The notes: generated by a model not told the origin, from the letters alone. A stretch of DNA of 64,000 nucleotides from Methanobacteriota archaeon (GCA_020697715.1 JAEHCO010000001.1:32001-96000), one strand, 5' to 3'; positions 15,137-36,687 are shown, counted from the stretch's first letter. Numbers and translations are program-made.

Positions 15137-16693
15137 ATGGCTGAGACACTCACCATACTGAAAGGCGTCAGTATAAATGATGACGGCCAGGTATCCATGG
15201 ATCTCAGAGAATGGAGCATTGAGGATATCGTATCCACCATGAGCAAGGTGTTCGATTCGCTGATCGCGGTCTCCGCTATCACCAAAGGTGATGAAAAGGC
15301 CTACCTGGAAGCGGATGATTCCGTAATGAGGATAAAAAATCAATTCAAGTCCCAATTTGTCTCACTTGGCATAGAGAAGCATATCCTGAAGGGAGGTTTG
15401 AGATCCCATCTGGACGTGGGAATTGAAGGAGCGGATAAGGTATTGGGGGGAGGGATCCCCAAAGGCAATACCATATTATTGCTCGGACCACCTGGAAGTG
15501 AGAAATACTTATTCGCATACCAATATATAATCCAGGGACTGAGGGATGGAAGTGCATGTCTTATCAGCACATCGGTCACTGACCATAAAGGAATGAAGAA
15601 CAATCTTTCAAAGTTGAAGATCAAGCCATCCACATTCGAGGGCCAGGGATTATTGAAGACCATCGACTGGTATTCTTATAAGAAAGAAAATCTGGTGGGT
15701 GTGGAGGATGATGGAAATGTTTTCAGAGCGTCCAAGGACATAACCAATCTTGATATCGCGATAGGATCGGCTGTCAACAAGCTCTCCTTTGCCCCGACAA
15801 AAAGAGCGATGCTGGATATAATATCACCAGCACTCAATATCTATGATCATTCCATGGTCATAGAGTTCGTTCAAAAGGAGAAGAACCTATTGAAGACTAA
15901 GGGCTTCACGACACTTCTGGTGGTTGAGAGCGGAGCTCATGATGAAAGAACATTGTCCACTCTTAAACATCTTTCAGACGGTGTGTTGATTATCGAGAAA
16001 GGCAGCAAAGGCCAGCTTACATTCAAAGTAGAAGCTTTATCTGGCATGAAGTTCGACCAGAAGGCCCATCGCATCAAGGTGACCAAGAAAGGTCTGGAGA
16101 TCATTTCCAATGTGAAGGATGAAAGCTCCATATTACAGGATCTGCAAGAAATACCAGCGATTGACAAAATAACAGCAGAAAAACTTATCGAGGCTGGCTT
16201 CACCAGCATGGAAAAATTGGAAAAGGCGAAGAAGTCGGAACTGGAAAGTGTTACAGGCATTGATGCGAATGTGTCCAATAAGATCTACGAATACATACAT
16301 TCTGTAGAATATTCAAAGAAGATAATAGAGAGAAAGAGCCAGAACTGGGTAAGGAAAGGATTGCAATTCATTGGTAAAAAAGAGATAGACAAGGGAATGC
16401 AAAGTTTCCAGAGGGCGATAGAGATCCACCCCAAGAACTCAAGTGCGTGGCTGGAGATGGCCAGGCTTCTTTACAATGAAGGTAGCAAAGATGATTCCAG
16501 AAAATGCTTTGACAAAGCTTTGGAGATCGATCCCACATTGGCAAAAGAATGGTTCGATAAGACCGAGGTACAGGAAGCTGGATGGGGCTGTCCCGTATGT
16601 GGGTTCTACATAAAGGAAGAAAATATCGAATGCCCTGAATGTGGTGTCATATTCAGTGTTGAAGAAAGAGAGAGCCAGAGGGATCAAATATGA
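15137..16693 (+). CDS. KaiC/RAD55-like ATPase domain fused to HhH, TPR and zinc ribbon
   Basis: GIEGADKVLGGGIP, variant Walker A GPPGSEKY, LSDGVL, AEKLIEAGF (HhH), two TPRs, CPVC..CPEC; may start upstream at 15017. Confidence 0.8.
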   Translation: MAETLTILKGVSINDDGQVSMDLREWSIEDIVSTMSKVFDSLIAVSAITKGDEKAYLEADDSVMRIKNQFKSQFVSLGIEKHILKGGLRSHLDVGIEGADKVLGGGIPKGNTILLLGPPGSEKYLFAYQYIIQGLRDGSACLISTSVTDHKGMKNNLSKLKIKPSTFEGQGLLKTIDWYSYKKENLVGVEDDGNVFRASKDITNLDIAIGSAVNKLSFAPTKRAMLDIISPALNIYDHSMVIEFVQKEKNLLKTKGFTTLLVVESGAHDERTLSTLKHLSDGVLIIEKGSKGQLTFKVEALSGMKFDQKAHRIKVTKKGLEIISNVKDESSILQDLQEIPAIDKITAEKLIEAGFTSMEKLEKAKKSELESVTGIDANVSNKIYEYIHSVEYSKKIIERKSQNWVRKGLQFIGKKEIDKGMQSFQRAIEIHPKNSSAWLEMARLLYNEGSKDDSRKCFDKALEIDPTLAKEWFDKTEVQEAGWGCPVCGFYIKEENIECPECGVIFSVEERESQRDQI

Positions 16694-22343: not shown

Positions 22344-22748
22344 TCATTTCTTATATTTGTGGATCAACATCTTGTCCCAGTCCACATCATTCTCAAAGCC
22401 CTTGCTTTTCAGATATCGACTCATGGACTCGGTGACCCTGGCCACTTCCAATGACTTGGCTGAATGGTAATGTCCGTAGATGTACATCTCCAGGTCATCT
22501 GATTCTTCCTGGATCGGGAATATCATTCTCATGCGTCCCTGGCGATTGTAACCTTCTGGCTTCTTGTTCTTTTCCAGATCGATGAGGTTCTCCTTTATCA
22601 TCATATTGACCACCTCTTCCTCTTCGGGTGTCTGGTCCGTGTCCTCCAGGAACTTGAGGTACATCTCTGAGAATATAGGTGTGAAGTCCTTGTATTGCAC
22701 ACCCTTGTCAAATTTTATGTGTCCGCTTCTTACTTTCATATTGATCAC
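22344..22748 (-). CDS. hypothetical protein
   Basis: 134-aa ORF filling the gap between genes, with normal protein-like composition. Confidence 0.7.
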   Translation of the reverse strand: MINMKVRSGHIKFDKGVQYKDFTPIFSEMYLKFLEDTDQTPEEEEVVNMMIKENLIDLEKNKKPEGYNRQGRMRMIFPIQEESDDLEMYIYGHYHSAKSLEVARVTESMSRYLKSKGFENDVDWDKMLIHKYKK

Positions 22749-22945: not shown

Positions 22946-23452
22946 TTACATATTCAGTAAGCTGCCGCCGCTCATCTGGATCTCTTGTCCGTCTAGGTCG
23001 ACTATTGTAATTTCGTATTCACCAGCCTGTGCGTTTGCCCAGGTCAATGTTACGTAGTCTCCACTGTTTATAAGAGAGTTGGCTCCGATATCAGTTGCTA
23101 CTGCAGTGATATCCTGTCCAGCGCCAGATTTTGCAACAGAAATTGCTGTTGGCGGATTGGCATCAAACGATAATACATAACTAGTGGAATTAACACCAGC
23201 TATTGTTATTGTTATGTCTGTCCATTCGATATCTGTGCTGAACGATCCGAACTTCATTGTTGCGGTTGTTGAAGAGTCCTTATCGAGCTCTGACCAGTTT
23301 CCTGTTGCAGCTACACTGCCTCCACCGCCAAAGTCCATGACCATGACGTAAAGCACAGCAGCCAAAACCACGGTGATAGCGACCATCAAAATGGTAGCAA
23401 TAACCGGAGACACTGCGTCGTCCTTCTTTCTTATATTCCATGTGTTTTTCAT
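22946..23452 (-). CDS. archaeal type IV pilin
   Basis: Class III signal peptide and Pilin_N motif RKKDDA-VSPVIATILMVAITVVLAAVLY; SD GGAGG upstream. Confidence 0.9.
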   Translation of the reverse strand: MKNTWNIRKKDDAVSPVIATILMVAITVVLAAVLYVMVMDFGGGGSVAATGNWSELDKDSSTTATMKFGSFSTDIEWTDITITIAGVNSTSYVLSFDANPPTAISVAKSGAGQDITAVATDIGANSLINSGDYVTLTWANAQAGEYEITIVDLDGQEIQMSGGSLLNM

Positions 23453-23588
23453 ATATTTTGTCCTCCTGTAGACTATAAGCCTACGTAATTATAGATTACA
23501 AGGACAATATATTTATAGTTTTCTCAAAATAATACGGCAATCAACGTATATACATACGGCAAATACCGATGCATTGTGCCTCAAAGGA

Positions 23589-24341
23589 TCATATGTTCTT
23601 TGCGGATATACCCTTATCATCTATGTTGCATGATAAGATCTTAGTTTTCTCTGGGTGATTCCTCACCTTCCTTATCAGCAGATTCCTTGTGAAAGTGGAG
23701 CCCTCTCTGAGCCTCTCCAGTTCTATTGTGATATCCACTATATCCTGGACACCACTTTCCACGCGATTGTCAAAAACCCCTTTCAGCATCGTGACGAGGG
23801 CTATGCCATTATTTAGTTGAGTATGAGCCTTGATGGTCCTTATGGCGGAAAGCACATCAGCCTCATCATAATACTCTAGGAAGAAATCCAGAGAATCCAA
23901 TACGATCCTAAATGGTGGTTTGAGCTTCGATATACCATATGTGAGCGTGGTCAGGAAATTGACATCCATGCTTTGTTCAGCCTGGGCGGCATTGAATTGC
24001 TTGATATCTCGCATTTTCAATCCTTCCTGGCGATACTTGCTAACTTCCAGGTTCTTGGCCAGAACCTTCTCATAATACATCTTGCCGATATTCACGACCC
24101 TGATATCCTGCTTCCACCCGAATTCACCCATGGCGGTCTTAACAGCCTCATCACTTTCAGTGGTGGAGAAATAGGTAACGTTCTCATTTCCTATTCCAGC
24201 TGCTGCAAACTGCTTGGCAAATAGCTCGACACCGGTTCCGGGTATACCGGTGATCAATATCGTACATCCTTTCGGAACACCATCCATCAGGGATTTATCC
24301 AGCTCCTTCACACCTATGCTGGTAGTTTCGATCAAACTCAT
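23589..24341 (-). CDS. KaiC/RAD55-family ATPase-like protein lacking the Walker A lysine
   Basis: SIGVKELD..LMDGVP, GIPGTGVE, IVLDSL, RNLLIRKVR. Confidence 0.85.
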   Translation of the reverse strand: MSLIETTSIGVKELDKSLMDGVPKGCTILITGIPGTGVELFAKQFAAAGIGNENVTYFSTTESDEAVKTAMGEFGWKQDIRVVNIGKMYYEKVLAKNLEVSKYRQEGLKMRDIKQFNAAQAEQSMDVNFLTTLTYGISKLKPPFRIVLDSLDFFLEYYDEADVLSAIRTIKAHTQLNNGIALVTMLKGVFDNRVESGVQDIVDITIELERLREGSTFTRNLLIRKVRNHPEKTKILSCNIDDKGISAKNI

Positions 24342-24910
24342 TCACCCCCTATGGTTATCGTGGTATCACATACCAACTTCATCATATTGGATATCTCTTC
24401 AGTGCTGAACTCTTCCATTGTGAAGACCATGGAATAGGCATCCTTGGCTCTCAGATTGTTTATGAATATATGCAAGAATTCGGACAGGATCTTCATATTA
24501 TTGTGAATACCCAGGGCATTTATGGCATCTAAAACAATGACATTGTTCTTGCCATCTGATTTCCTTATGAGGTATTCCACCTTCAGCATGATGTTCTCCA
24601 GCATGGTGGGGCTTTCCACATAGAGCACGTTCTTGTATTTCTTGGCCCCTCCGACCATGATATGGGAAACACAGTCCACGAAGTAAATATTGGTAAGATC
24701 GATCTCCAGGATCTTCAAGACATCGATTATTGAATGTGATGGAATAGCCACCGTGATGTAGATGACATTCAAATTCTTCTTATTGGCGAAGATATCCACT
24801 ATTCCCCTTATGGCATCGAAATAACTATCACTGACTATCTTCAGGTTTATAGCGGATGAAGGTGGGAGCTCATGAAGCTCATCTGCCAGATCGCCAGGTG
24901 ATTTGATCAT
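24338..24910 (-). CDS. degenerate KaiC-like (RecA-fold) protein
   Basis: IYIT, YFVDC, IVLDAINAL, LVCDTTI; no P-loop; lies between two KaiC-like genes. Confidence 0.65.
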   Translation of the reverse strand: MIKSPGDLADELHELPPSSAINLKIVSDSYFDAIRGIVDIFANKKNLNVIYITVAIPSHSIIDVLKILEIDLTNIYFVDCVSHIMVGGAKKYKNVLYVESPTMLENIMLKVEYLIRKSDGKNNVIVLDAINALGIHNNMKILSEFLHIFINNLRAKDAYSMVFTMEEFSTEEISNMMKLVCDTTITIGGE

Positions 24911-25659
24911 AGACCACCACCGCCCTTGAGCAATGGAACAAGTAATACGCCCGCGGGTGTCAGATCCAGAACATATTTCGCTCTGGAATGTACTGTTCCT
25001 CTCATTTTCACCACTTGCAATGTCCTCAGAAGGTCTCCCCTCCGCTCATAATTCCCCATAAGGACGATACCATCCGCGATGGCTTCCTCCACCCCGTAGA
25101 GCGAGTACCTGTCGGCAGATGGTGATATTTCGGATATCAGAAGACTGGTGCAACCCCTGGTAGAAAGAGCTTTTCCTATCTTCAATATGAATTCCCTTAT
25201 CTTCTCCTCTGTTTTCAATCTGTAGCAAACGGAGGTTATGGAATCTATGACCAATCTTTTGACAGAAAGCTCATCCACGAGGTTACCCAGTGCACGAACC
25301 AGAGTGTCGACATCCTCCAGACTGAACTCCACATTTGTCAAACCCAATCTCTCATAGATGACTGGCATATCGACGAATGCCAGTTTTCCTGTTTTTATCA
25401 GGGATTCCTCAAAGAAATCATATGGGATGACATTCGTGGTAAGTTTCTCAGATGATTCTGTAACTGAAACAAAAAGTGAATTCTCATCGGCCAGAGCCCC
25501 ATGCACTAAAAATTCAAGGGACAGTGTGGTCTTTCCAGTACCGCAACTGCCTGTGAACAAAATGGTATTTCCTCTGGGTATTCCTCCATTTAGAATATTA
25601 TCCAAACCATCTATTCCTGTAACGCAACGTTCTCTCTCAATGATATTTTCTGAGGCCAT
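24907..25659 (-). CDS. KaiC/RAD55-family ATPase (single domain)
   Basis: TGIDGLDNILNGGIP, GSCGTGKT, LVIDS, GVEEAIADG, VVKMRG. Confidence 0.92.
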   Translation of the reverse strand: MASENIIERERCVTGIDGLDNILNGGIPRGNTILFTGSCGTGKTTLSLEFLVHGALADENSLFVSVTESSEKLTTNVIPYDFFEESLIKTGKLAFVDMPVIYERLGLTNVEFSLEDVDTLVRALGNLVDELSVKRLVIDSITSVCYRLKTEEKIREFILKIGKALSTRGCTSLLISEISPSADRYSLYGVEEAIADGIVLMGNYERRGDLLRTLQVVKMRGTVHSRAKYVLDLTPAGVLLVPLLKGGGGL

Positions 25660-25812
25660 GATTTCCGTTCTCCAATATAGCTAACCATATTTTAATCATT
25701 TGCATAAGGATGGATTAATTTGTAATTACCTGCAAATCTATTTATAAGTCTTAACAGATATATAAAAAACTGTCCATAACATCAAGCAGACATCAAGTAG
25801 GAGACTGGCACT

Positions 25813-28800
25813 TTGAGCGATTCCACACTTTACCTATGCCCATTTTGTGGCGCCTTCATAAACGAGGAGGCCGAGGTTTGTCCCAATTGCAGCAAACCAT
25901 TGGAAGAGGAGGTGGAAGGTGGATTCGAGAAAGAGCTGGATGATCTTATAGATGAAGATCTCAATGCCATGTCAGGAAGTGAATCCTGTCCCAGATGTGG
26001 AAAGCAGCTGGAAGAAGGATCATTAGAATGCCTGGATTGCAATATGAAGATCGAGGATGGACTGGAACCCGCATCTGAAGGAGAAGAGGAAGGAGTGGCT
26101 CTATTCCTTTGTTCAGGATGTGGGGCTTTTATCAATTCGAATTCCAATGAATGCCCCAAATGTGGTATTTCACTTGATGATGAGGCTGAAGAAGAACATG
26201 ATTTTGTAGAATATGATAATGAATTGCTGGATCTCCTTGTTGAGAATGAGCCAGATGAAGAAGATGAGCTTATCCTGGAGTTGGATAGCATAGATGATCC
26301 AGAAGATCTGATATCGGTCATTGACAAGATGCCGGATATTGAAGATGAAGAGCTATTCGATGATGAACCAGATATCGTACTTGATCTTGATCTGGCAGAT
26401 GACGATCCGGAAGGCGATCTTCTTCACATGAACATTGATGATGAAATAGAGAAGACCAGGATAGTGGAATCCATTAGCGAAAGGGTAGCCGGAGAAGTGG
26501 CTATCGAAAGTGATAGTGGAGATGAGATCATGCTCTGTGGAGAGTGTGGAGCATTTGTCTCCCAATCTTCAAAGGAATGTAATGTTTGTGGAAATGACAT
26601 AAGACCTGGCAGCCATCTGGCTATTGAAAAAGATGAGATCCCCTCAGAGAATGATGGCGAAAATACAGAGACCGCCCTGAGGTCCATACTTGGGATATTG
26701 GATGATGTCATACTTGATCCGGATCCAATGGCAGATCATGAGGATGATATTGGCATATGCCAGAAATGTGGAGCTTTCATACCTCATGGCGAGAGTGCGT
26801 GTCCCGTATGTCATGCGGACAAAAAGAGTCTTCCAGATATCATATACACGGAACTGCCTATAGATGATCATGATTCTATGTCCATTTGCGGGGATTGTGG
26901 AGCTTTTGTCAAATCCGATTCAGATACATGTAATGTTTGTGGAGCCAAGGTCGATGCCGATATGCTAAGATCCATAGAGCCAGATGATGTCTTGGAGATG
27001 GGGATGGATGCGGATGACCCAATGGATATTCTGAAAAAAGCACTGGGTGTGCTGGAATTACGAGATACGACACCAGAGGAAAGGATCGGTGGAGAACTGG
27101 ATCTATGTCCGGATTGTGGTGCTTTCGTCTCAGCTAATGCCAAATCATGCTCCATTTGTGGCAGCGATCTGATCCAGGGCACGGATATAAGCCTGGATGA
27201 TGGCATAGTCATGGATCTGGATGATGGATCGGTCATTCTTTCAGACAGTGTTTGTCCCAATTGTGGCTCCAAGTTCGGGGTCGGGGCAGGAGATTGTGAG
27301 GTTTGTGGCTTCACATTCCTCGGTGATGAAAGTGATCATGACGAGAAGGAAATGTCCTATGAAGACAGGGTGGACATATCGGATATCATAGAATTCGAGG
27401 TTCCAGAATTGACAAAGGAAAGCGCTATCGATCACCTCAATGAAATGGAAGATGATATGGATGATCTAATTCTGGATGAAGTAAAGCCTGAATCATCTGC
27501 CGAGGTTAAGAGTGGGGAACTATCCAATGAAGAAAAGCTGGCCAGGATAGAAAAGGCCTATGAAGAAGGGCAACTTAGCAAGGCCAATTACATAATCAAC
27601 AAGGCCAAGTTCTACGGACTTGTTCAGGAAATGAATGAGATAGAAGATGACCTGGATGAGCTTTTGATAGATATTGATGAGACGATGGCCGAGACCGTGG
27701 AAGTGCCGACCGAAGAGGATGAAATAGAAAGTCTGGAGCTTGGAGATCTTCATCTGAATATCGATCCAGATGCTCAGGACGACGAGGATACCCAGCCAGA
27801 TGTGGAAATGGAATATGATGATCTGTCCCTTTCAGAAGATGACATCAAAGAAGGCATCCATGACGGAAAATATGATGATATCATCGAATTCGATGATCAG
27901 GATCTGGATCTAACCCAGGATGATACTTATCAGGAAGATCTGGATGAGCATATTGAAACTTATGAGGAAGAGGATGAGACCTCGAAAGAGGATGAAACCT
28001 CGGATGAGGATGTCATATACGAAGAGGTCGAGGTCTATGTGGACGAAGATGGCCAGGAAATAGAATATGAAGAGGTCGAGGTAAATGAGGATGACATCGA
28101 AGAGTATGAGGAGGATGTCGATGATCCTGAAGGAACCGATTTAGATGATCATGACCCCGAGGAAACATATTTCGAAGAGGAAGACGAGATCCATGTACCC
28201 TTCAGATCACATGCCATGGCGGAGACCACTGGAGGACCGCAATATCTCAATCATTCCGGATGGGAATATGGTGTCATCGCATCACTTCTTACATCCCTCT
28301 TCTATGTCGCGCTTTCCTCATACATACCCATCAATCCCATATCATTGGCCATAATATTTGGCGTGATACTTATCTTCGCCTTCATAATGATGGTCACATC
28401 AAGATCCATATTCATGAAAGGCGATCTGTACCGTGGTTCCGTGTTCATGATAGGCGGAGTGATAATTTCTTTCATCCTGCTCCATTGGTTCGCGGATATC
28501 ATGATCGATGATCCGATGGTGGACAAAATGCTACTGTCGATAGGAATAATGATGATCGGTATAGGAATAATCTGGATAAGGGGCAAGATCCGATATATCC
28601 ATCTCTGGTTATCCGGCACCATATTCCTATTTCTGTTCTCCATAGGAGAGCTTTATTATTTCGAGCAATGGGCCTATTCCCCCATCCAGCCACCAGGAGC
28701 GATAGTGGCTGGGATCGGGATATCTCTGATCGTGGCCAGTTCCATACTGCTGGCCTATGAGAGAAGTCTACACACTTCGATAGAGACGGAGATCGTTCGA

Positions 28801-29373
28801 GGAGATATGGACTATCTCAATAAGAATTACAAGAAGGCATTGCATTCCTATGATAGGGCGCTTGAGAAAAGCACCCTGAAGACCGAATCCGCATTGAAGG
28901 CAGATGATACCAGGGAATACGATGTCCCATGGTACAGTAAAGGTGCGACCCTGATATTGATGGGTAATTTGAAAGAAGGAATTGAATGTCTGGATATGGC
29001 TCTATCCATAAATCCCAATAACGAGGTCGCATGGGTGAGCAAGGGAAATGCCTATTCAAAGCTCGGGGACATGAGCAGTGCTTTGGAATCATATAACAAT
29101 GCATTGATCGCGAACCCCAGATACATAATAGCCTGGAACAATAGAGGTAATGCATTTGCCAGGAAGGAGAATTATATCGAAGCCCTGAAGAACTATAACA
29201 GGGCGATCAAGCTGGATCCAGATTATAAGGACGCGTGGATCAATAAGGGCTATGTCCTGATGAAGATGGGAAAGCAGGATGAGGCGCTCAAATGTGTGTC
29301 GATGATAGGGGAGAAAAAGATGGGACAGCATGGAGCAGCCAGTACCAATGGCAGTACTAAGGCCTCTGCCTGA
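25813..29373 (+). CDS. giant acidic membrane protein: 8 zinc ribbons, about 6 TM helices, C-terminal TPRs
   Basis: Eight CxxC-x~10-CxxC units (most CxxCGAF), Asp/Glu-rich linker, hydrophobic block, TPR motifs AWVSKG, AWNNRG, AWINKG. Confidence 0.85.
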   Translation: MSDSTLYLCPFCGAFINEEAEVCPNCSKPLEEEVEGGFEKELDDLIDEDLNAMSGSESCPRCGKQLEEGSLECLDCNMKIEDGLEPASEGEEEGVALFLCSGCGAFINSNSNECPKCGISLDDEAEEEHDFVEYDNELLDLLVENEPDEEDELILELDSIDDPEDLISVIDKMPDIEDEELFDDEPDIVLDLDLADDDPEGDLLHMNIDDEIEKTRIVESISERVAGEVAIESDSGDEIMLCGECGAFVSQSSKECNVCGNDIRPGSHLAIEKDEIPSENDGENTETALRSILGILDDVILDPDPMADHEDDIGICQKCGAFIPHGESACPVCHADKKSLPDIIYTELPIDDHDSMSICGDCGAFVKSDSDTCNVCGAKVDADMLRSIEPDDVLEMGMDADDPMDILKKALGVLELRDTTPEERIGGELDLCPDCGAFVSANAKSCSICGSDLIQGTDISLDDGIVMDLDDGSVILSDSVCPNCGSKFGVGAGDCEVCGFTFLGDESDHDEKEMSYEDRVDISDIIEFEVPELTKESAIDHLNEMEDDMDDLILDEVKPESSAEVKSGELSNEEKLARIEKAYEEGQLSKANYIINKAKFYGLVQEMNEIEDDLDELLIDIDETMAETVEVPTEEDEIESLELGDLHLNIDPDAQDDEDTQPDVEMEYDDLSLSEDDIKEGIHDGKYDDIIEFDDQDLDLTQDDTYQEDLDEHIETYEEEDETSKEDETSDEDVIYEEVEVYVDEDGQEIEYEEVEVNEDDIEEYEEDVDDPEGTDLDDHDPEETYFEEEDEIHVPFRSHAMAETTGGPQYLNHSGWEYGVIASLLTSLFYVALSSYIPINPISLAIIFGVILIFAFIMMVTSRSIFMKGDLYRGSVFMIGGVIISFILLHWFADIMIDDPMVDKMLLSIGIMMIGIGIIWIRGKIRYIHLWLSGTIFLFLFSIGELYYFEQWAYSPIQPPGAIVAGIGISLIVASSILLAYERSLHTSIETEIVRGDMDYLNKNYKKALHSYDRALEKSTLKTESALKADDTREYDVPWYSKGATLILMGNLKEGIECLDMALSINPNNEVAWVSKGNAYSKLGDMSSALESYNNALIANPRYIIAWNNRGNAFARKENYIEALKNYNRAIKLDPDYKDAWINKGYVLMKMGKQDEALKCVSMIGEKKMGQHGAASTNGSTKASA

Positions 29374-32300
29374 CCTGCATGATGCATATTCCGATCATGG
29401 TTGCCAGGATCAATGAGAAGATATTACTGAACTCGTCAATAATGATTATATCGACCGATGCCACATCACTATCCGGCAGAAGCATGTAGCCACTGGAAGT
29501 AGTGTAATTCAATAGTGCCCAATTATCAACAGGGCCAGCAAGTGGCGTCGCATTGACTGTCACATTGATGAATATCGCGTATGAGCCGGGCGCGATATTT
29601 GTGAAGTACCAGCTAATATCCTGACCCAGTATTGTCGAAGGAGCTGGAACCGCGCTGTCGAAGATAATTCCAGAGGGTAATGTGTCATTTATCCAGACAT
29701 TGCCCGCATTGGTCGAGCCAGTATTATTGTAGAAGATGGTGTACATGATGGTGTCATTGGCATAGGCGGTTGTGACATTGGCGGTCTTCTGGATATCTAT
29801 AACAGGCCGCTGGCAGGTGACATTGGCCCATGAGGTCTCGGTTCCCAGAGAGTATGTCAAAGTGGCGGAATTGGATAATAATTCCAGATCGGTCGCATTG
29901 GCATTCACCTGCACCTCGATGGTTATGAGATTCGTACTCTGTCTGGGAATCTGGGTGAAGGTCCAGCCAAGATCCTGGCCAACTATCGTCACGGGCAATG
30001 GATTGGCGACCACATAATCGACATTCGCTGGAAGTACATCATCTATCTGAACATTCCAGGCCTTTCCCAAACCTGTATTATTGTACCATATCTCGTAGGT
30101 TATCAGATCGCCTGGTTGGGCAGTGGTCACATTGGCTGTTTTGGATATGGACATATTGGGGAGTTTAGGTGCCAGTGGATCAATGGGGTCAGAAAGCTCT
30201 ATTTCTTCTAGCCCAGTCGATCGGGATGACCTTGCGGCCTCGGCATTGTGCCTGATACTATTGGTCTCATCCTCCATACCCAGCCAGTCTGACATTTCGA
30301 TGGCGATGGAGATATCAGATTGCCTGGATATTCCAAGAAGTCCAAGGGGCACGCCTACCTCAATCCGGGATAGATCATTGGCCCCGGATGCTTTGCCGAG
30401 ATATGTCCATGGAGTGCTCGCGGACATCTCCTCATATGAGTATATCTCGCTGGATAGTATCTTATTGTATTTGCCAGTTATAAGGATTAAATGGTCAGCT
30501 CCAAGCTGACCATTTAAATAATGGCCTGTTTCGATATCATCATCCGCGTCTATGTATATCAACAGATGATCCATACCTTTTCTCTCAATGTGCCTCACAG
30601 GGCCGATATAACGGCTTATGAACCTGCCAGAATAATTCGCATCATAGCTCTGGGGGATGGTGGTATTGAGCCAATTGTCAACACCTCCAGCATCGTGATC
30701 CACTACACCGTCGCCATCACGATCCCCATTAGAATTCGCATCATCGACACCGTCATTATTAAAATCATGAGCATATGAGCCATCAGGGCCATCCAGCACA
30801 TCCGGGACACCATCATTGTCCGAGTCCAAATTAGGAGAAGTCTGAGTGACATTTTGAGCCGATGGTGTTGATCTGATCCTCAGCACTGGTATTGCGGATC
30901 CTCCCATGGCCACCCCACCCACGGATGTGTAGATGTTCAGCTCATCATCCATATTCATGCGGTAATCCCTGATATCCACATTCCTGTTCAGGAACTTCAG
31001 CTTTGCAGGATCCTTTCCTGGAACTACCTGATCATTGGCCGCATCGATATTTGGAGGTGTCGATTGCCAGTCTCCAAATGCTCCATCTATCGTCGTACCA
31101 GATGGTTGGCCATAGTGTTTGAGAGATGGTGCACTTACTATCATGTCCAAGTTGACGGTGTCGATCATGCCCACATTCAAAGGCATGAGGCCGATGGTCT
31201 GGCCATTCTCTGTCCCGGTCAATGTGGATGAAAGAATAAGTTGAGTGATTTCAGACGGCGATAGTGGCATGGGGTCGAATAATTCCAAATGAAGGACCTG
31301 GCCGTCCACCTGCATCGAGGATAGGCCAACCACCTCGTCAATGACAGGTTCTATCAGGCCATTATCATTCATATCCTTGTATAATGTGAATTGTGAAAGA
31401 ATATCCGGACTGGATGTTCCCAATATACGGAAGTCGAGTGAGTCGATCTCCACCTCATCCTCATAGCATACGAGTTCGAAGGAGCAAGAGAGAACATCAT
31501 CTCTTGCCAGTATATCATTCGAAGGGTCAGTGATCGACCTTATAGACAGGGATGCGGTATTGGGGATCATTATGCCATCGGAAGTGTCTGTATTTCCTTC
31601 GGAATCACTTGTCATGACAAGGACTGATGGTGACTGGTCTGCCAGATCGCTCATGGCCGTTCTCAGTTCGATCTTATCTCCACTCACCTTACTGGATACC
31701 GAGGATATATACATGAACCCACTCCAGTCATCAGGATCATGATCATTATCGAATCTCAATAGTTCAGATGCTTCCACATGATTATCATAACCATGAACAT
31801 CTATCAGGACATCGGCGCCCAGATTGTCGATGGAATAGCCAGTGCGATTATTCCCATCTGCATCTAGGAAGATATAGATGGAATCCACACCACTGCCATT
31901 CGCACTACCACCTTCCATCATGGTCCCGTCAACTTGTAGGAAAATGTCAAGATATGGATGATCCAATGAAAATCTAGTATCTACCAGATCTATATCAGGG
32001 TTTATGACATCCGATACTTCATCGGCATAGGATGTGAACTTATTCCAGTCACTGAAAGCTCCGTCTATCGAGATATCTCGTGTGTCACCATTATTCATAT
32101 TCTCGGTGAATATCGGCACATAGAGTATCAAAGATATCACAATGACAATGGATAAAAAGCCGATCTTCCACCTACGTGCTTTTTGACGATTCCTTCTCAA
32201 TATAGCCATATCCTGCTTTCTCTCAACCAAGGAATCACCATTTATGAAACCATCGCCATTAACTATGCCAGAGCCGTTGACCAGGCCATTCGTTAACCCA

Positions 32301-34660
32301 TTGGTCAAGCCATTGGTACGACCTTGACCATTTGTGATTCCATTCGTCCTACCCTGCCCATTCGTTAACCCATTGGTACGGCCTTGACCATTGGTGAGAC
32401 CGTTCGTTCTTCCCATACCATTTGTAAGGCCGTTCGTCCTACCCTGGCCATTAGTTAATCCATGGGCACCACCTTGACCATTGGTCAAACCATTTGTCCT
32501 ACCTTGACCATTGGTAAAGCCTTGAGCATGACCGAATTTCCTTCTCATCTTTTCAGAAAGTTCAAGATCATTGGAATGGGATATCTTCTCGGCATCCACA
32601 TCGTATACCAGAGAATCCAATATGGACTCCAATTCTTCTTCCGTATAGTCCTCTTCTTGATCGTCCACACACTCATCCTGATCGATGACCTCGAATGACT
32701 GGTCATCATCATCGTCCTCATCATCTAAATCAAATTCAAGGGAATCAAGAAGATCCTGCATCTCTTCATCTGACTCGACCTCATCCATATCCGTATAGCC
32801 CAATTCCAATGGATCTTCAATTATCTCTCCATCTAAACCGAAAATAATGGGAGTTGGAGCAGTATCCGGCTCATCAGTCTCATCAAGATCAAGAACAAGA
32901 GATTCGAGAAGATCGTCCATGTCTTCATCTGGCTCATCTTCAAGGATTAGCTCGGGTTCATGTTCAATATCATCTTCAAACTCTTCACCCTCAAGATCCA
33001 GACCCAATTCTGCCAGGTCGTCCAATCCATCCAATTCCAATAAGAGCCAGTCCTCTTTGAATGCCTCATCAGAGCCCTGGTCAAGATCAGATATATCGTC
33101 ATCATCGTGCTCGACCACCTCGATCCTTTCCAGCTCTTCATCCTTCAATTCCAATAATTCCAGGGAGAACATCTCGTCCTCCAATTCAGCCATTTCAGAT
33201 CTGAGGATATCGTCCTTCATCATGCCCTTCTCTTCGATCTCCATCTGCTTACAGTTCGGGCATGAACTGGAATCTCCCATAACGAAGGTGCCGCAGGACT
33301 CGCAGACCGTGAACCCTATGGTTGGAACTGTCTCGAGAAGGTCTATTTCCTCTTCAGGGTCCTCATCCGGTTCATCCAGCTCCCTGGATAATACCTCATT
33401 CACTTCCTTGGACAGGACATTCACATCTCCGATCTCATCCTCCAGATCACCCAGGGAATTGATGATGGCCTCATCCAGCTTGAATTCCTTCATGTCTATG
33501 ACATCGTCACAGTTCGGACAGCTTTCTGCCCCACTGCCCAGGAATGCTCCACAGGATCCGCATATACCAATATCTAGATCCGGGGCGGTCTCAAGCCTAT
33601 CCACCTCTGGTTCATCCACCAGGTCCATTTCCAATATCTCATCGATCTCGGAAGATAGCATCTCGCCACATTTGGGACACGTGTCCACATCCCCCTCCAC
33701 AAATGTCCCGCAGGAACTGCACATTTGGAAATCGATCTCCGGTATCGTCTCAAGGAGATCGTCATGCTCATCTGCCAGTTCATTGCCCAATGCTTCTGCG
33801 GTGATATCTTGACTGAATATCTCACCACAGACCCCGCAATCCTCGGATATGGAGCTGATCAATGCACCACAACTCGAGCATCTGGATAATATCTCATCAG
33901 TTACATCATCCTCATCTTCCTCCACCGTGGTGTAACATATTGGACAGACCGCACTGTGCTCGTTCAGAAATGCTCCGCAGTTCCCACATAGGTAAAATTT
34001 GATATCAGCAGCATCTTCGCCAACTGAAAGCCCCAGGAAATTGATTATGTTCTCGATCGCGCCTTTCTCATCCAAGATAAGATCCGAGGTCGAAATACGA
34101 GTGCCAGTAATGGAGCCGACATCGACTGGCTGACCCAATTGAACATGCATCCGATTCACAATATCATGGTTCACGAAACTGGGAGAGATGACATGAACGG
34201 ACGTGATATCCTTATCCTGCATCTTGCTCATGTTCTTTCTCATGAAGTCCATCGCGGAATCAGGTCCGAAGATATCCGCCGATTGCTGAAGAATATCGGT
34301 TATGAACACGATATTTTCTCTTCCCTCGGTCATTTTCAGGGTCTTGTTCACGGCCATATTGACATTCAAAAGAGCCCTGGCGCAGAGTAATAGATTATTA
34401 TCTTCCTCAACCCCGATCACTTGAGATATCTGGTAGGAGAACCAGTCTATCACGAAGAGCTGGTCCTTTTCCCTCAGACCCTGCATCTCCGGACCCATGC
34501 TCTCCAGGACATCGATCAATTCCTTTCCCGAAGAAGTGGCCACAAGGGCGATGATGGTCTTACCCTCATCCACATATTTCTCAATAAGGTGGGCCATCGA
34601 CAGGTAGGTTTGTTCCTCCAGGGCCATAACGGCAAATGATTCGGCTTTTTCTCCGGGCAT
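29357..34660 (-). CDS. giant transmembrane protein: degenerate KaiC-like N-terminus, 5 zinc ribbons, acidic linker, NGLT repeats, TM, large ectodomain with DUF11-like domains
   Basis: VIDWFSY..IGVEED segment shared with 15137..16693; CxxCG(A/T) ribbons; TM WKIGFLSIVIVISLILYVPIF; two IDGAF(S/G)DW; two KTANVTTA...TY.I.YNNTG; C-terminal DEF + hydrophobic + basic tail. Confidence 0.85.
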   Translation of the reverse strand: MPGEKAESFAVMALEEQTYLSMAHLIEKYVDEGKTIIALVATSSGKELIDVLESMGPEMQGLREKDQLFVIDWFSYQISQVIGVEEDNNLLLCARALLNVNMAVNKTLKMTEGRENIVFITDILQQSADIFGPDSAMDFMRKNMSKMQDKDITSVHVISPSFVNHDIVNRMHVQLGQPVDVGSITGTRISTSDLILDEKGAIENIINFLGLSVGEDAADIKFYLCGNCGAFLNEHSAVCPICYTTVEEDEDDVTDEILSRCSSCGALISSISEDCGVCGEIFSQDITAEALGNELADEHDDLLETIPEIDFQMCSSCGTFVEGDVDTCPKCGEMLSSEIDEILEMDLVDEPEVDRLETAPDLDIGICGSCGAFLGSGAESCPNCDDVIDMKEFKLDEAIINSLGDLEDEIGDVNVLSKEVNEVLSRELDEPDEDPEEEIDLLETVPTIGFTVCESCGTFVMGDSSSCPNCKQMEIEEKGMMKDDILRSEMAELEDEMFSLELLELKDEELERIEVVEHDDDDISDLDQGSDEAFKEDWLLLELDGLDDLAELGLDLEGEEFEDDIEHEPELILEDEPDEDMDDLLESLVLDLDETDEPDTAPTPIIFGLDGEIIEDPLELGYTDMDEVESDEEMQDLLDSLEFDLDDEDDDDDQSFEVIDQDECVDDQEEDYTEEELESILDSLVYDVDAEKISHSNDLELSEKMRRKFGHAQGFTNGQGRTNGLTNGQGGAHGLTNGQGRTNGLTNGMGRTNGLTNGQGRTNGLTNGQGRTNGITNGQGRTNGLTNGLTNGLVNGSGIVNGDGFINGDSLVERKQDMAILRRNRQKARRWKIGFLSIVIVISLILYVPIFTENMNNGDTRDISIDGAFSDWNKFTSYADEVSDVINPDIDLVDTRFSLDHPYLDIFLQVDGTMMEGGSANGSGVDSIYIFLDADGNNRTGYSIDNLGADVLIDVHGYDNHVEASELLRFDNDHDPDDWSGFMYISSVSSKVSGDKIELRTAMSDLADQSPSVLVMTSDSEGNTDTSDGIMIPNTASLSIRSITDPSNDILARDDVLSCSFELVCYEDEVEIDSLDFRILGTSSPDILSQFTLYKDMNDNGLIEPVIDEVVGLSSMQVDGQVLHLELFDPMPLSPSEITQLILSSTLTGTENGQTIGLMPLNVGMIDTVNLDMIVSAPSLKHYGQPSGTTIDGAFGDWQSTPPNIDAANDQVVPGKDPAKLKFLNRNVDIRDYRMNMDDELNIYTSVGGVAMGGSAIPVLRIRSTPSAQNVTQTSPNLDSDNDGVPDVLDGPDGSYAHDFNNDGVDDANSNGDRDGDGVVDHDAGGVDNWLNTTIPQSYDANYSGRFISRYIGPVRHIERKGMDHLLIYIDADDDIETGHYLNGQLGADHLILITGKYNKILSSEIYSYEEMSASTPWTYLGKASGANDLSRIEVGVPLGLLGISRQSDISIAIEMSDWLGMEDETNSIRHNAEAARSSRSTGLEEIELSDPIDPLAPKLPNMSISKTANVTTAQPGDLITYEIWYNNTGLGKAWNVQIDDVLPANVDYVVANPLPVTIVGQDLGWTFTQIPRQSTNLITIEVQVNANATDLELLSNSATLTYSLGTETSWANVTCQRPVIDIQKTANVTTAYANDTIMYTIFYNNTGSTNAGNVWINDTLPSGIIFDSAVPAPSTILGQDISWYFTNIAPGSYAIFINVTVNATPLAGPVDNWALLNYTTSSGYMLLPDSDVASVDIIIIDEFSNIFSLILATMIGICIMQVRQRP
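32265..32525 (-). repeat. Gly/Asn/Thr repeat (TNGLTNGQGR)n within the coding region
   Basis: Repeated decapeptide units encoded with synonymously diverged codons. Confidence 0.85.
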
Positions 34661-34736
34661 TTTTTCTCCATTTTTTTATGATATTTGGATCATCAAATTA
34701 TGATTCTCATATCATCAAATTAAGATCCTAAGATCA

Positions 34737-35456
34737 TCAATAAATTGTCTCCTGGCTATCTATTTCGATCCCATCGCTCATGATGAGGAAGGGATGTTTG
34801 TACGGATCATGGCGGGCGAACCTCATCTTGTAGATCGTTATCGTGCGCCTGTACTCGCCCTCGACATTCTCATAATCCAGTACGATTATTGAATCTGAAA
34901 TGAACTGCTCGATGCCGAATCTTGTTTCCCCGCTCTTATTGGCCTCGGTTATCAACACGGTCGTCAGTTCATGGTCCTTCAGAATACGACAGAATCTGAA
35001 TAATTCCCTTCTGAACTCGTCGATATCACTGTAGTACAGGCCGACAGCGGAAATGGAATCTATGAGCAATCGCGTTGCTCCTGTTTCTTTCACCGTCTGG
35101 ATAATGAAATCCAGCAGATTTCTAAGACTGACTATTCCGAGATCCACATCCTCCGCCAGATCGATATCCTTCCTCATCTCGCCAAAATCCACAAGCTGGA
35201 TGTCATTAGAACCATGATATTCATCAAAGTCCATTCCAAAGGCCTTGGAAGCCCGTAGTAGATTCTCCCTGCTCTCCTCCAGGGTGATGAACAATCCCTT
35301 CTCCCCATGCTCAGTGAATCCCTTGAATATGAACTGCATTCCGAACAGTGTCTTTGCACTTCCAGCAGGTCCGGATATCAAGTTGATAGTTCGCTCGGGA
35401 AATCCCCCGCCTGCAAGTTCATCCAAACCGCTTATTCCTGTATTTATTATTGTCAT
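34737..35456 (-). CDS. KaiC/RAD55-family ATPase (single domain)
   Basis: TGISGLDEL.GGGFP, GPAGSAKT, ITLEE, LLIDS, GIEQFISD, IYKMR. Confidence 0.92.
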   Translation of the reverse strand: MTIINTGISGLDELAGGGFPERTINLISGPAGSAKTLFGMQFIFKGFTEHGEKGLFITLEESRENLLRASKAFGMDFDEYHGSNDIQLVDFGEMRKDIDLAEDVDLGIVSLRNLLDFIIQTVKETGATRLLIDSISAVGLYYSDIDEFRRELFRFCRILKDHELTTVLITEANKSGETRFGIEQFISDSIIVLDYENVEGEYRRTITIYKMRFARHDPYKHPFLIMSDGIEIDSQETIY

Positions 35457-36163
35457 TTTTCCACCTCTCTGTCTTTGATCGAATATTTTTCATTAATTAA
35501 TTTGTAAAGGGAGGAATTGGAGCCATCCCCATCTATTTTCATATCTTTAAAAGCCCTGGCCAGTGAGATGTTCACAAGGGATATCAGCGACGATCTGCCC
35601 AATGCATTTTCCTCGAGCTCAAGTACTCGAGCAATTATCTGCAAGTGATCCAAACCATCCATCTTATCAGATGAGCCAGGCGGTGTAATTGCCCCGCCTG
35701 GCTCATATGTGTCGATGCACGTTTCCAGATAATTCATCACATCATATTCCAGCTCCAGATCCTTCTTCCAGGATCCGAGAAGTGATCCCATGGTATTACC
35801 AGTGAACCTCATAAGACGCTGGGAGAATTCGCATAAGAAAACCATGGAAAGATGGAGATCATTATCCTTCTCCATCTCACCCTGGCTACCCAATGACCTA
35901 ATATCGATATCATAGAATATCCTGGAATTCTTTATATCATATTCCAGGGCGCTTCGTGTCTTGCCCTTTCTTGTTCTGGATTCCAGCACGCCTATGGACT
36001 CGAGGTCCTGTAAATGCTTAACTGCAGTTGCCACGTGCATGTCCAGACCATGAGATATCTCGGTAGCTGTTGACCAGCCGCGGTCAACAACTACCGAAAT
36101 AATGTCCAGCGACCTCTCCCTGCCCAATATGGAGAGGCTTGTTTGAAGTTCTTTCTTGTTCAT
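35453..36163 (-). CDS. ArsR-like winged-HTH transcriptional regulator
   Basis: TATEISHGLDMHVATAVKHLQDLESIGVL; overlaps the downstream KaiC-like gene. Confidence 0.8.
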   Translation of the reverse strand: MNKKELQTSLSILGRERSLDIISVVVDRGWSTATEISHGLDMHVATAVKHLQDLESIGVLESRTRKGKTRSALEYDIKNSRIFYDIDIRSLGSQGEMEKDNDLHLSMVFLCEFSQRLMRFTGNTMGSLLGSWKKDLELEYDVMNYLETCIDTYEPGGAITPPGSSDKMDGLDHLQIIARVLELEENALGRSSLISLVNISLARAFKDMKIDGDGSNSSLYKLINEKYSIKDREVEK

Positions 36164-36306
36164 ATTATCCCCTTCTTTTTCAGTTGCCAGTTTCTTATCG
36201 CGCTCAGATATTTCATTAAATATAAAGTATTAATAAGATATTATAGGCTATTTGAAGTATTATTAATAAAGGTTTGGGATAACTTTAGTTCGGTTGAAAT
36301 ATCTAG

Positions 36307-36570
36307 CAGCAAGACATTTGTATTCGAGCATGCCCCGTCTGGATAATTCATTGATAATTTAATAGGGCGGGGTACTATATTCGATGTGCTAGCGAGTGAC
36401 AGTTGCGATGTGCCAGTAGAAAGATAAACTCCTCGCTTTCGAACGCGAGGAGTCAAACCAAACCCTGCCCCGATCTATTTTGCGTTAAATGCGCAAAATA
36501 ATAGTTCGAGAAGCAAAGCAATTCGAACTATGAAGCAGGGGCGGGGTCCTTATCCACACCCAACATAGCA
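36307..36570 (+). ncRNA. structured dispersed non-coding element, family B copy 2
   Basis: Homologous to 10382..10637, with the 63-bp cassette in a different position. Confidence 0.6.
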
Positions 36571-36687
36571 TACAGTGCACCATGTGGATTGGTGAAATAT
36601 ACACCAGTTAATGATCCCTACGCCTGCCTGATGAAAGCTAACAAAACTGCAAAACCTTTAATTCACTTGAGTGTATTGGGCGCCTTA

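Follow-up and report, generated by a model that had tools for sequence, protein, structure and literature searches.

Eight genes at positions 22946 to 36163 of a 64,000-nucleotide stretch from an uncultured Thermoplasmata archaeon (the window; C11:32001-96000 of a 2.1-Mb, 34-contig assembly, G000) are best explained as two independent, separately conserved KaiC modules lying side by side with one lineage-specific neighbor, rather than as one machine. Module B—a KaiC-type ATPase, a winged helix-turn-helix (wHTH) regulator and a 1767-residue giant membrane protein—would be a receptor–KaiC–regulator signaling unit, while module A, three KaiC-type proteins beside a pilin gene, would be a pilus-linked KaiC regulator; the eighth gene, for a zinc-ribbon/transmembrane/TPR protein, would be a local neighbor. 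We judge this functional reading to be about evenly poised between right and wrong. The names KaiC_250, KaiCdeg_190, KaiCw_250, ZnTPR_1186, KaiC_239, and HTH_236 used throughout are labels coined in this analysis.

The layout proposed in a first-pass annotation of the window holds up: every open reading frame (ORF) it listed is present, and all eight genes are confirmed. On the minus strand, a PilA-type archaeal type IV pilin of 168 residues (22946-23452) lies downstream of a three-gene KaiC-like operon, KaiC_250 (24907-25659), KaiCdeg_190 (24338-24910), and KaiCw_250 (23589-24341), whose neighboring genes overlap by 4 nucleotides each. ZnTPR_1186 (1186 residues; 25813-29373, plus strand) is divergent from this trio. 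Converging on it, with an overlap of 17 nucleotides (29357-29373), is a minus-strand run of the wHTH gene HTH_236 (35453-36163), KaiC_239 (34737-35456), and the 1767-residue giant (29357-34660), in which the first two genes also overlap by 4 nucleotides.

The domain identities, motif states and conservation of each module are matters of observation, and it is gene order in related genomes that divides the eight genes. Genes at the compared loci are longest-ORF or tblastn calls made in this analysis; the related loci carry the labels Thermoplasmata, Methanomassiliicoccales, Methanobacteriota, and ‘Candidatus Proteinoplasmatales archaeon SG8-5’, on metagenome-assembled genomes (MAGs). Only same-genus genomes keep the whole arrangement. 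One of these, G003, retains it in its entirety, the 17-nucleotide convergent overlap included, which says little because collinearity there extends across the entire region. A second genus of the family (g2; genome G004, locus L055) has the order AAK, LigT, orf134, two pilins, KaiCw, KaiCdeg, KaiC_250, a divergent ribbon/TPR gene (1051 residues), a 269-residue gene, and an amidohydrolase: no pilin, KaiC trio member or ribbon/TPR gene is lacking, but this locus is without the wHTH-KaiC-giant unit. Families f3 and f4 retain the KaiC genes and pilins, with a Lhr helicase and a radical-SAM protein as the upstream genes, and in f4 genomes the wHTH-KaiC-giant unit stands alone (L024, L025, and L026).

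At the center of module B is the giant, whose N-terminal 215 residues (34016-34660) form a KaiC-type domain that the first-pass annotation missed. Weak BLAST matches connect this segment to other degenerate KaiC proteins of the genome. An alignment of 26 such N-domains matches the KaiC_239 family (hhalign 98.5%, E 2.1e-15), and the N-domain profile recovers from the PDB the KaiC entry 8zn5 (7e-23), SSO2452, PH0186, and FlaH (4yds, 5.8e-10). The domain is classed as inactivated because the window’s copy has a gap at the P-loop position and distant members, which keep GPxGxEK, have lost the Lys-Ser/Thr; ‘iKaiC’ is the term for such domains in PMC5847659. Searched against a large protein collection within a length window of 971-3093 residues, residues 1-215 gave no match at E≤0.001. 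Beyond this head lie five CxxC-x10-CxxC zinc ribbons, four of them of the CxxCG[AT]F type (residues 225-470; 33251-33988; Pfam DZR 9.7e-13), and then an acidic linker (residues 481-712; 43% Asp plus Glu) and membrane-proximal G-x-T-N-G pentapeptide-type repeats (residues 713-815; 12% Lys plus Arg), together spanning 32216-33220. The repeats are common to paralogues and relatives, and match no Pfam family at E≤0.1. A transmembrane helix (residues 834-852; 32105-32161; hydropathy 2.45) precedes an ectodomain of about 880 residues (~860-1737), which comprises three beta-sandwich domains (residues 860-1480; 30221-32083) and two DUF11 repeats (residues 1503-1700; Pfam DUF11 4.7e-20); the repeats and a C-terminal hydrophobic anchor (residues 1738-1764, by hydropathy) occupy 29369-30154.

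Residues 860-1480 of the ectodomain match no Pfam family at E≤0.1, and the domain division comes from a structural model with 16 homologues (pLDDT 77, pTM 0.69), which predicts that domains 1 and 3 are DOMON/CBM9-like, with an Asp-rich insert in domain 3. VIA comparison with a reference set of 48,161 PDB representatives, for which structural background is Z 7-8, aligned domain 3 with Sas6 (7uwu; Z 12.7, root-mean-square deviation (rmsd) 3.3, 171 residues aligned), the carbohydrate-binding module (CBM) CBM9 of T. maritima xylanase (1i82; Z 11.9, rmsd 3.2, 150 aligned), and the glucodextranase C-domain (1ulv; Z 10.8). Domain 1 resembles the gamma subunits of ethylbenzene dehydrogenase (2ivf_C; Z 10.4) and nitrite oxidoreductase (Z 9.0), and domain 2 resembles sialidase CBM (6mnj, Z 9.7) and cohesin-type sandwiches, with Z values of 8-9.7 overall. 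An RsgI-like CBM3 module, 4b9c, is also among the ectodomain’s fold matches (Z 7.4). Z values above background speak to the predicted fold, not to function; the ectodomain probably binds glycan or a surface. Foldseek rows pairing the 621-residue model with multi-domain adhesins and integrins had query-normalized TM-scores of 0.11-0.17, and were not used for assignment.

Also in module B, KaiC_239 is a single-domain KaiC-type protein (Pfam KaiC, PF06745, 2e-64; 217.6 bits against a curated cut-off of 26.6) with G29, G32, S33, K35, E60, E61, and D133 invariant among 24 family sequences; its P-loop, GPAGSAKT, has Ala in place of the last Gly. Having kept the Walker A Lys, the catalytic Glu pair and the Walker B Asp, it counts, judged by sequence, as a predicted active KaiC. 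HTH_236 combines an ArsR/Phr-like winged helix (residues 1-86) with a helical C-terminal domain. A profile of 20 relatives matches the Pyrococcus furiosus heat-shock regulator Phr (2p4w, 5.7e-6), and a model (pLDDT 84.9) aligns with 2p4w_B over residues 2-86 (VIA Z 12.6, rmsd 2.3, 84 aligned) and its winged helix equally with CzrA (1r1u, VIA Z 12.6). Family scores fall below cut-off (NCBIfam ArsR/SmtB 1.2e-4, 21.8 bits versus 55; Pfam HTH_20 16.6 versus 27), and the helical C-terminal half found no partner in a fold list that the wHTH domain filled. Upstream of the wHTH gene is a 425-nucleotide gap (window 36164-36588) with GC-rich inverted repeats, for example at ~36420-36470 and 36500-36560 in minus-strand reading; it may be a regulatory region, or a hairpin element of a type that occurs elsewhere in the genome.

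Contact between the giant and its ATPase was assessed by complex prediction, in which the KaiC_239 family alignment was paired with that of giant residues 1-215 in three runs, alongside three controls. The pair scored 0.42 (runs 0.41, 0.45, and 0.42) and the best control 0.00; pLDDT of the partners was no lower than 76, the runs had 88% or more of their contacts in common, and the verdict was ‘weak support’. The pass mark is reached by 116 of 157 solved complexes and by 2 of 215 mismatched pairs, and a pass at 0.42 is weak because scores of 0.60 or less occur in only 18 of those 157 complexes and in both of the passing mismatches. Furthermore, KaiC-KaiC complexes have already been solved, so the pass may reflect only that likeness. 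To this extent, the first-pass proposal that the giant recruits KaiC gains weak computational support.

Conservation of the unit was gauged by a class-wide N-domain search, the best 30 loci of which were examined (own locus included; 12 families); class-wide counts rest on a sample of 201 genomes and order-level counts on 22. The N-domain query matches 66 of the 201, a count that includes other inactivated-KaiC architectures. Directly upstream, a KaiC_239-type gene is found in 25 of the 30 loci (42-94% identical, own copy aside; one is cut by a contig end), representing nine families: f1, f2, f4, f6, f15, f17, f18, f22, and f28. A HTH_236-type gene lies upstream of the KaiC in 22 of the 30, and hence the giant’s linkage to its own KaiC and wHTH genes, which the first-pass annotation had noted in a single genome, extends well beyond it. 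At f18 loci L148, L156, L157, L160, and L163, the inactivated KaiC domain is followed by GxTNG repeats in a frame of only 310-344 residues, possibly a minimal or split version of the giant.

The same logic recurs within the genome itself. Five of its proteins have a homologous ectodomain, and three of them, the window’s giant included, belong to KaiC + wHTH + giant triads. On contig C31 the triad comprises a 292-residue KaiC, a 247-residue wHTH protein and a giant of 2303 residues with HhH, ribbons, and TPR; at C11:211720 it comprises a 307-residue KaiC, a 242-residue wHTH protein and a giant of 2917 residues with TPR, HhH, one ribbon, and an FG-GAP ectodomain. These two giants share homologous repeat, transmembrane and ectodomain regions with the window’s protein and have other cytoplasmic heads, and the gene order differs from that of the window unit. 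With wHTH families that differ as well, the KaiC + wHTH + giant logic appears to have been built from different parts. One further paralogue, of 1052 residues (C30:76770-81046, locus L004), has a short cytoplasmic head with GFTNG repeats and overlaps by 4 nucleotides a separate 373-residue acidic zinc-ribbon protein, as if the ribbon array had been split off as its own gene.

Module A joins one KaiC with intact motifs to two without. KaiC_250 (Pfam KaiC 8.9e-55, 186 bits) is a single-domain KaiC-type ATPase with intact Walker A, catalytic Glu, and Walker B Asp; its canonical motifs, GSCGTGKT, SVTE, and RLVIDS, are kept in the consensus of 78 family sequences. It is 85-88% identical across families, while in the same comparison aRF1 and ArgRS from the other genus of the family are 66% and 56% identical. 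KaiCw_250 (5.8e-24, 85.2 bits) and KaiCdeg_190 (3.9e-5, 23.6 bits, below cut-off) lack the intact set. In the former, the P-loop reads GIPGTGVE, and the family consensus G.PG.G.E (46 sequences) has lost the Lys-Thr; the Walker B region and a TTE motif are retained, and its counterparts in other families and in genus g2 are 59-72% identical. KaiCdeg_190, a short KaiC-related protein, has no P-loop and has strongly conserved VESPTMLENIMLK and LDSxNxLxIHN motifs (consensus of 81 sequences). Each KaiC in the stretch has one domain and is 190-250 residues long, unlike circadian KaiC with its tandem CI-CII domains (about 500 residues); the window’s copies score 107-133 bits against a cut-off of 546 for NCBIfam circ_KaiC, and 35.6-48.5 against 215 for ArlH (NF052589). 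The genome as a whole contains 31 matches to PF06745, indicating an expanded set of single-domain KaiC paralogues. Several matches fall in long frames (865, 834, and 976 residues) that combine KaiC-like domains with other parts: two KaiC-like domains at C11:381461-384040 adjoin a KaiC at 384112, and a long KaiC-like frame at C11:609086-612001 adjoins one at 612272.

The pilin of module A matches Pilin_N (PF07790; 2.1e-8, 35.4 bits versus a cut-off of 25.2), TIGR02537 (6.6e-14, 51.1 bits versus 20), and, by sequence, the solved PilA-type pilus subunits 8gi2 (2.7e-7), 9myg, and 8fj5. By profile, it would have the class III signal peptide and hydrophobic N-terminal helix of the archaeal PilA type. 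Only two small Pilin_N ORFs occur in the genome, of which this is one; Pilin_N matches also start frames of 1851 and 1805 residues at C22:217753 and C22:223245, whose products would be giants that begin like a pilin. Immediately beyond the pilin on its downstream side, a 134-residue ORF (window 22344-22748, minus strand) with no Pfam or NCBIfam match is kept in place, with 93% identity in G003 and 80% in G004.

Module A reaches across the class. Its most specific marker is KaiCdeg_190, which is found in 21 of the 22 genomes of the order and in 152 of the 201 sampled class genomes (E≤1e-10; one of them, G109, unpublished), mostly as one match per genome. In a set of 5.8 billion proteins it has 816 clusters at E≤0.001; of the 120 listed, those with a name shown are called either hypothetical or, generically, KaiC/FlaH, and their source labels are Thermoplasmata or related MAGs throughout. 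The single sampled f30 genome gave no KaiCdeg_190 match. A GTDB pattern scan returned 119 relatives, 80 of which were kept and examined, with neighbors called by tblastn. A KaiC_250-type gene is directly upstream of KaiCdeg in all 78 loci with enough flank (2 of the 80 lack it), a KaiCw-type gene directly downstream in 45 of 64, and a pilin on the same strand within 3.5 kb downstream in 61 of 71. Among the 62 fully flanked loci, 33 have trio plus pilin, 19 a pair (no KaiCw) plus pilin, and 10 the trio without a detected pilin; a pilin thus lies just downstream in 52 of 62, and the association of KaiC-type proteins with a pilin gene, first suggested from this one genome, is borne out far beyond it.

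The nearest pilus machinery lies on the same contig, ~570 kb from the pilin, at C11:631009-635572, where two T2SSF-type ORFs (360- and 350-residue frames) sit between two T2SSE-type ORFs (568- and 610-residue frames). Further pilus ATPase/platform loci occur at C11:338698-340642 and C3:11415-13359; these have near-equal T2SSE/T2SSF scores in frames of near-equal length (703 and 706 residues; 711 and 711 residues), a likeness that reflects either a recent duplication or an assembly duplicate. In f4, the Lhr helicase and radical-SAM genes that precede the trio were considered as pilus ATPase and platform, and were ruled out by Pfam.

ZnTPR_1186 belongs to neither module. It is best explained as a conserved protein, anchored in the membrane, with a position here that is peculiar to its family: next to module A it is seen in family f1 alone, and next to module B in this genus alone. 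It has eight CxxC-x10-CxxC ribbons (residues 9-498; Pfam DZR 2.7e-22), six of the CxxCG[AT]F type, an acidic linker (residues 521-800; 41% Asp plus Glu), about six transmembrane helices (residues 820-982; five by hydropathy scan plus one weaker segment read by eye), and C-terminal TPR repeats (residues ~1000-1170; TPR_1 1.5e-33). An even number of helices would place ribbons and TPR on the same, cytoplasmic, side. Ribbons of one type accompany acidic linkers in both giants, as the first-pass annotation noted, and have the same 18-residue spacing, but the type is not specific to the pair. At least two CxxCG[AT]F-type motifs, or three or more ribbons, occur in 15 ORFs of the genome, and a third giant, on contig C31, is matched by the 1767-residue protein’s ribbons as well as ZnTPR_1186 is.

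Orthologues of ZnTPR_1186 are present in 19 of the 22 genomes of the order, in frames of 1019-1134 residues. Those of f4 are 36-43% identical in the transmembrane block and lie on contigs other than the KaiC trio’s; in f3 and f4, the neighbors are a NosD/beta-helix giant, a metallo-beta-lactamase (MBL)-fold gene and a phosphoglycerate mutase. For instance, at L183:8888-18901, L184, and L185 (f4), the orthologue is co-directional with an MBL-fold gene (279 residues) and a NosD/beta-helix giant of ~2000 residues, a setting that could be the protein’s native context. No KaiC-family gene was called among the neighbors of the f4 orthologues; a 256-residue gene two positions from one of them has a Rad51/RecA-type Pfam match (1e-7). 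Two f4 multi-ribbon proteins ~5 kb from pilins (888 and 1559 residues) were considered as further orthologues and ruled out, having no transmembrane or TPR match. The longer of the two (L054:406-5085, genome G021) has about ten zinc ribbons and a weak match to SMODS (nucleotidyltransferase; 2.2e-8), and lies ~2.4 kb downstream of pilins.

How might the two modules work? What follows is inferred throughout, from each binding step and the ligand to the way the signal runs and the genes it acts on. The giant of module B would span the membrane, displaying outside ~880 residues of CBM9/DOMON-like and DUF11 beta-sandwiches and holding inside the inactivated KaiC domain, five ribbons, acidic linker, and GxTNG repeats. 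Its inactivated KaiC head would co-assemble with the active KaiC_239 encoded just upstream, and the ATPase or phosphorylation state of this KaiC assembly would set the activity of the wHTH regulator, which is translationally coupled to KaiC. In module A, the one active and two inactivated KaiC-type proteins would form what is probably a mixed oligomer, with an ArlH/CirA-like role of tying the adjacent pilin’s expression or assembly to cell state, the machinery itself being encoded ~570 kb away.

A number of observations weigh against this account. Five of the 30 N-domain loci have no upstream KaiC: L154 has none within its 1.5-kb flank, and L162, L167, L169, and L170 are other inactivated-KaiC architectures in which the KaiC match falls within the N-domain’s own ORF, the first three being of a ~490-residue type that also occurs at window 15137-16693. 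Two of the five ectodomain paralogues, C22:50032 and C30:76770, have no KaiC or wHTH neighbor, and neither of the further triads has a wHTH protein close to HTH_236 (hhalign 2%; their matches are HTH_24/MarR-like). A complex score as weak as that of KaiC_239 and the N-domain is, for predicted pairs, more often wrong than right unless contact was likely beforehand. In module A, KaiCdeg_190 was not found in any of 20 sampled f9 genomes or 20 of f20; 10 of the 62 fully flanked loci have the trio without a pilin, and the genes downstream there look housekeeping. The pilin gene probably has a promoter of its own, because the 136-nucleotide gap upstream of it holds a TATA-like stretch and a Shine-Dalgarno-like AGGAGG. 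No pilus ATPase lies near module A (no T2SSE or T2SSF match in the window), and the nearest of the ATPase and TadC genes that the first-pass annotation had proposed to locate lie at the distance given above. Finally, the genomes are related by descent and are not independent samples, so that the tallies overstate independent events.

Module B is equally consistent with a surface protein that has an ATPase of its own for assembly or turnover. On that account the giant is no sensor; it is an adhesin or envelope protein, with the KaiC pair serving its insertion, clustering, anchoring or turnover and the wHTH protein autoregulating the operon. The ectodomain does resemble adhesin and carbohydrate-binding modules, although multi-Ig adhesins and integrin legs appear in Foldseek at TM-scores of 0.11-0.17 only, and DUF11 repeats with a C-terminal anchor are typical of surface proteins. 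So too would envelope proteins be expected to form a family as large as this one, with up to 27 matches per genome and matches in 41 of 41 relatives, and Thermoplasmatales, according to PMC12448462, have a glycoprotein layer and no S-layer. Retention of the wHTH gene in 22 of 30 loci, together with two analogous triads that use other wHTH families, fits an output role better than chance autoregulation, however, and the two ectodomain paralogues that occur without any KaiC indicate that KaiC is not needed for display of such an ectodomain as such. We place this alternative on the improbable side, while the receptor–KaiC–regulator unit continues to be our preferred explanation of module B.

For module A, a somewhat less probable alternative is that the trio is a general housekeeping or timing device of Thermoplasmata, and that adjacency to the pilin is inherited gene order without functional meaning. 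A core cellular role would suit a near-universal, mostly single-copy gene set (152 of 201) whose KaiC_250 is unusually conserved, and is also favored by the ten loci with housekeeping genes in the pilin’s place and by the pilin’s seeming promoter. Yet the pilin stays beside the KaiC genes in the 19 loci without a third KaiC gene, and does so in families that otherwise differ in their flanking genes (Lhr helicase and radical-SAM in f4, ribbon/TPR in f1); a pilus-linked regulator is the favored role of module A. The original proposal that all eight genes form one trans-envelope system, with the two giants as a receptor/scaffold pair recruiting KaiC oligomers for pilus or surface assembly, can draw on the arrangement retained in G003, the divergence of the ribbon/TPR gene from the trio in both genera of f1, and the shared ribbon spacing in acidic linkers, but it is very improbable and largely refuted by synteny: L055 lacks the module B unit and has all else, the f3/f4 ribbon/TPR orthologues sit on other contigs among other genes, module B stands alone in L024-L026, the two giants are apart outside this genus, and their ribbon type is a genome-wide module.

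A broader proposition, which we advance tentatively and think doubtful, though less so than either of the first two alternatives, is that in Thermoplasmata inactivated KaiC domains serve as cytoplasmic transmitters for giant glycan-binding receptors on the cell surface, a large family, each wired via its own KaiC to its own wHTH regulator, alongside a class-wide KaiC core complex of one active and two inactivated members that couples pilin pool or pilus state to behavior. If true, this would amount to a KaiC-based counterpart of bacterial two-component or anti-sigma signaling, complete in three genes; no HisKA/HATPase_c or REC (two-component) domain appears in the Pfam matches of the 14 window proteins scanned. 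Worked examples in which the input, transducer and output of a KaiC hub are all defined are few in archaea. Candidates for all three occur together in the module B operon, which recurs in varied form within one genome and across at least nine families, so that three recombinant proteins would suffice for a test. Module A, which has no assigned function, ranks with the best-conserved gene sets of the class, and its link to the pilin suggests how surface filaments may be controlled in the S-layer-less Thermoplasmata.

Both modules fit an idea already published for archaea. Makarova, Galperin and Koonin reportedly presented KaiC-like ATPases as archaeal signal-transduction hubs in mBio in 2017, inactivated KaiC (iKaiC) domains included, and what the present case shares with that scheme is an expanded set of KaiC paralogues and the pairing of KaiC domains, both active and inactivated, with domains predicted to provide input and output. 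PMC4858521 and PMC5847659 between them already carry the general notions of KaiC-based hubs, of KaiC domains that have lost activity, and of KaiC genes situated by pilus genes. A text search of the literature, the 2017 KaiC-hub survey and supplementary material aside, found neither architecture described; PMC4858521 has supplementary tables that give KaiC arCOGs for each pilus locus and may bear on how new module A is.

The closest parallels to module A are among archaeal filaments. In PMC4858521 (Makarova, Koonin and Albers 2016), KaiC-family ATPases occur in archaeal type IV pilus loci as proposed regulators, beside the ATPase/TadC machinery of named pilus clades, whereas here they are beside stand-alone pilin genes far from the machinery; the word Thermoplasma is absent from that paper’s main text. 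Like the module A proteins, ArlH/FlaH of the archaellum and CirA consist of a single KaiC-type domain and have a genetic link to type IV filament systems. CirA of Haloferax volcanii affects regulation of pilin-mediated motility and arl transcription (PMC10983859). Unlike ArlH/FlaH, module A has no ArlI/ArlJ-type gene nearby, and couples one active KaiC to two inactivated KaiC proteins.

For module B, the nearest bacterial likeness is with RsgI-type anti-sigma factors, sensors of biomass with CBM-like domains: like them, the giant would be a bitopic protein with a CBM-like ectodomain, encoded with a transcription regulator. The cytoplasmic transmitter of module B would be a KaiC pair in place of an anti-sigma domain, and the resemblance is one of analogy, without homology in the cytoplasmic part. 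Separation of a pilin from its machinery also has a precedent, in the CdiP pilus of Cuniculiplasma divulgatum, where ~500 kb separates two pilin genes from the operon for the machinery, in which the platform protein is split (PMC12448462); the paper names KaiC in its reference list only. The distance here is ~570 kb, and the machinery locus similarly has two T2SSF-type ORFs.

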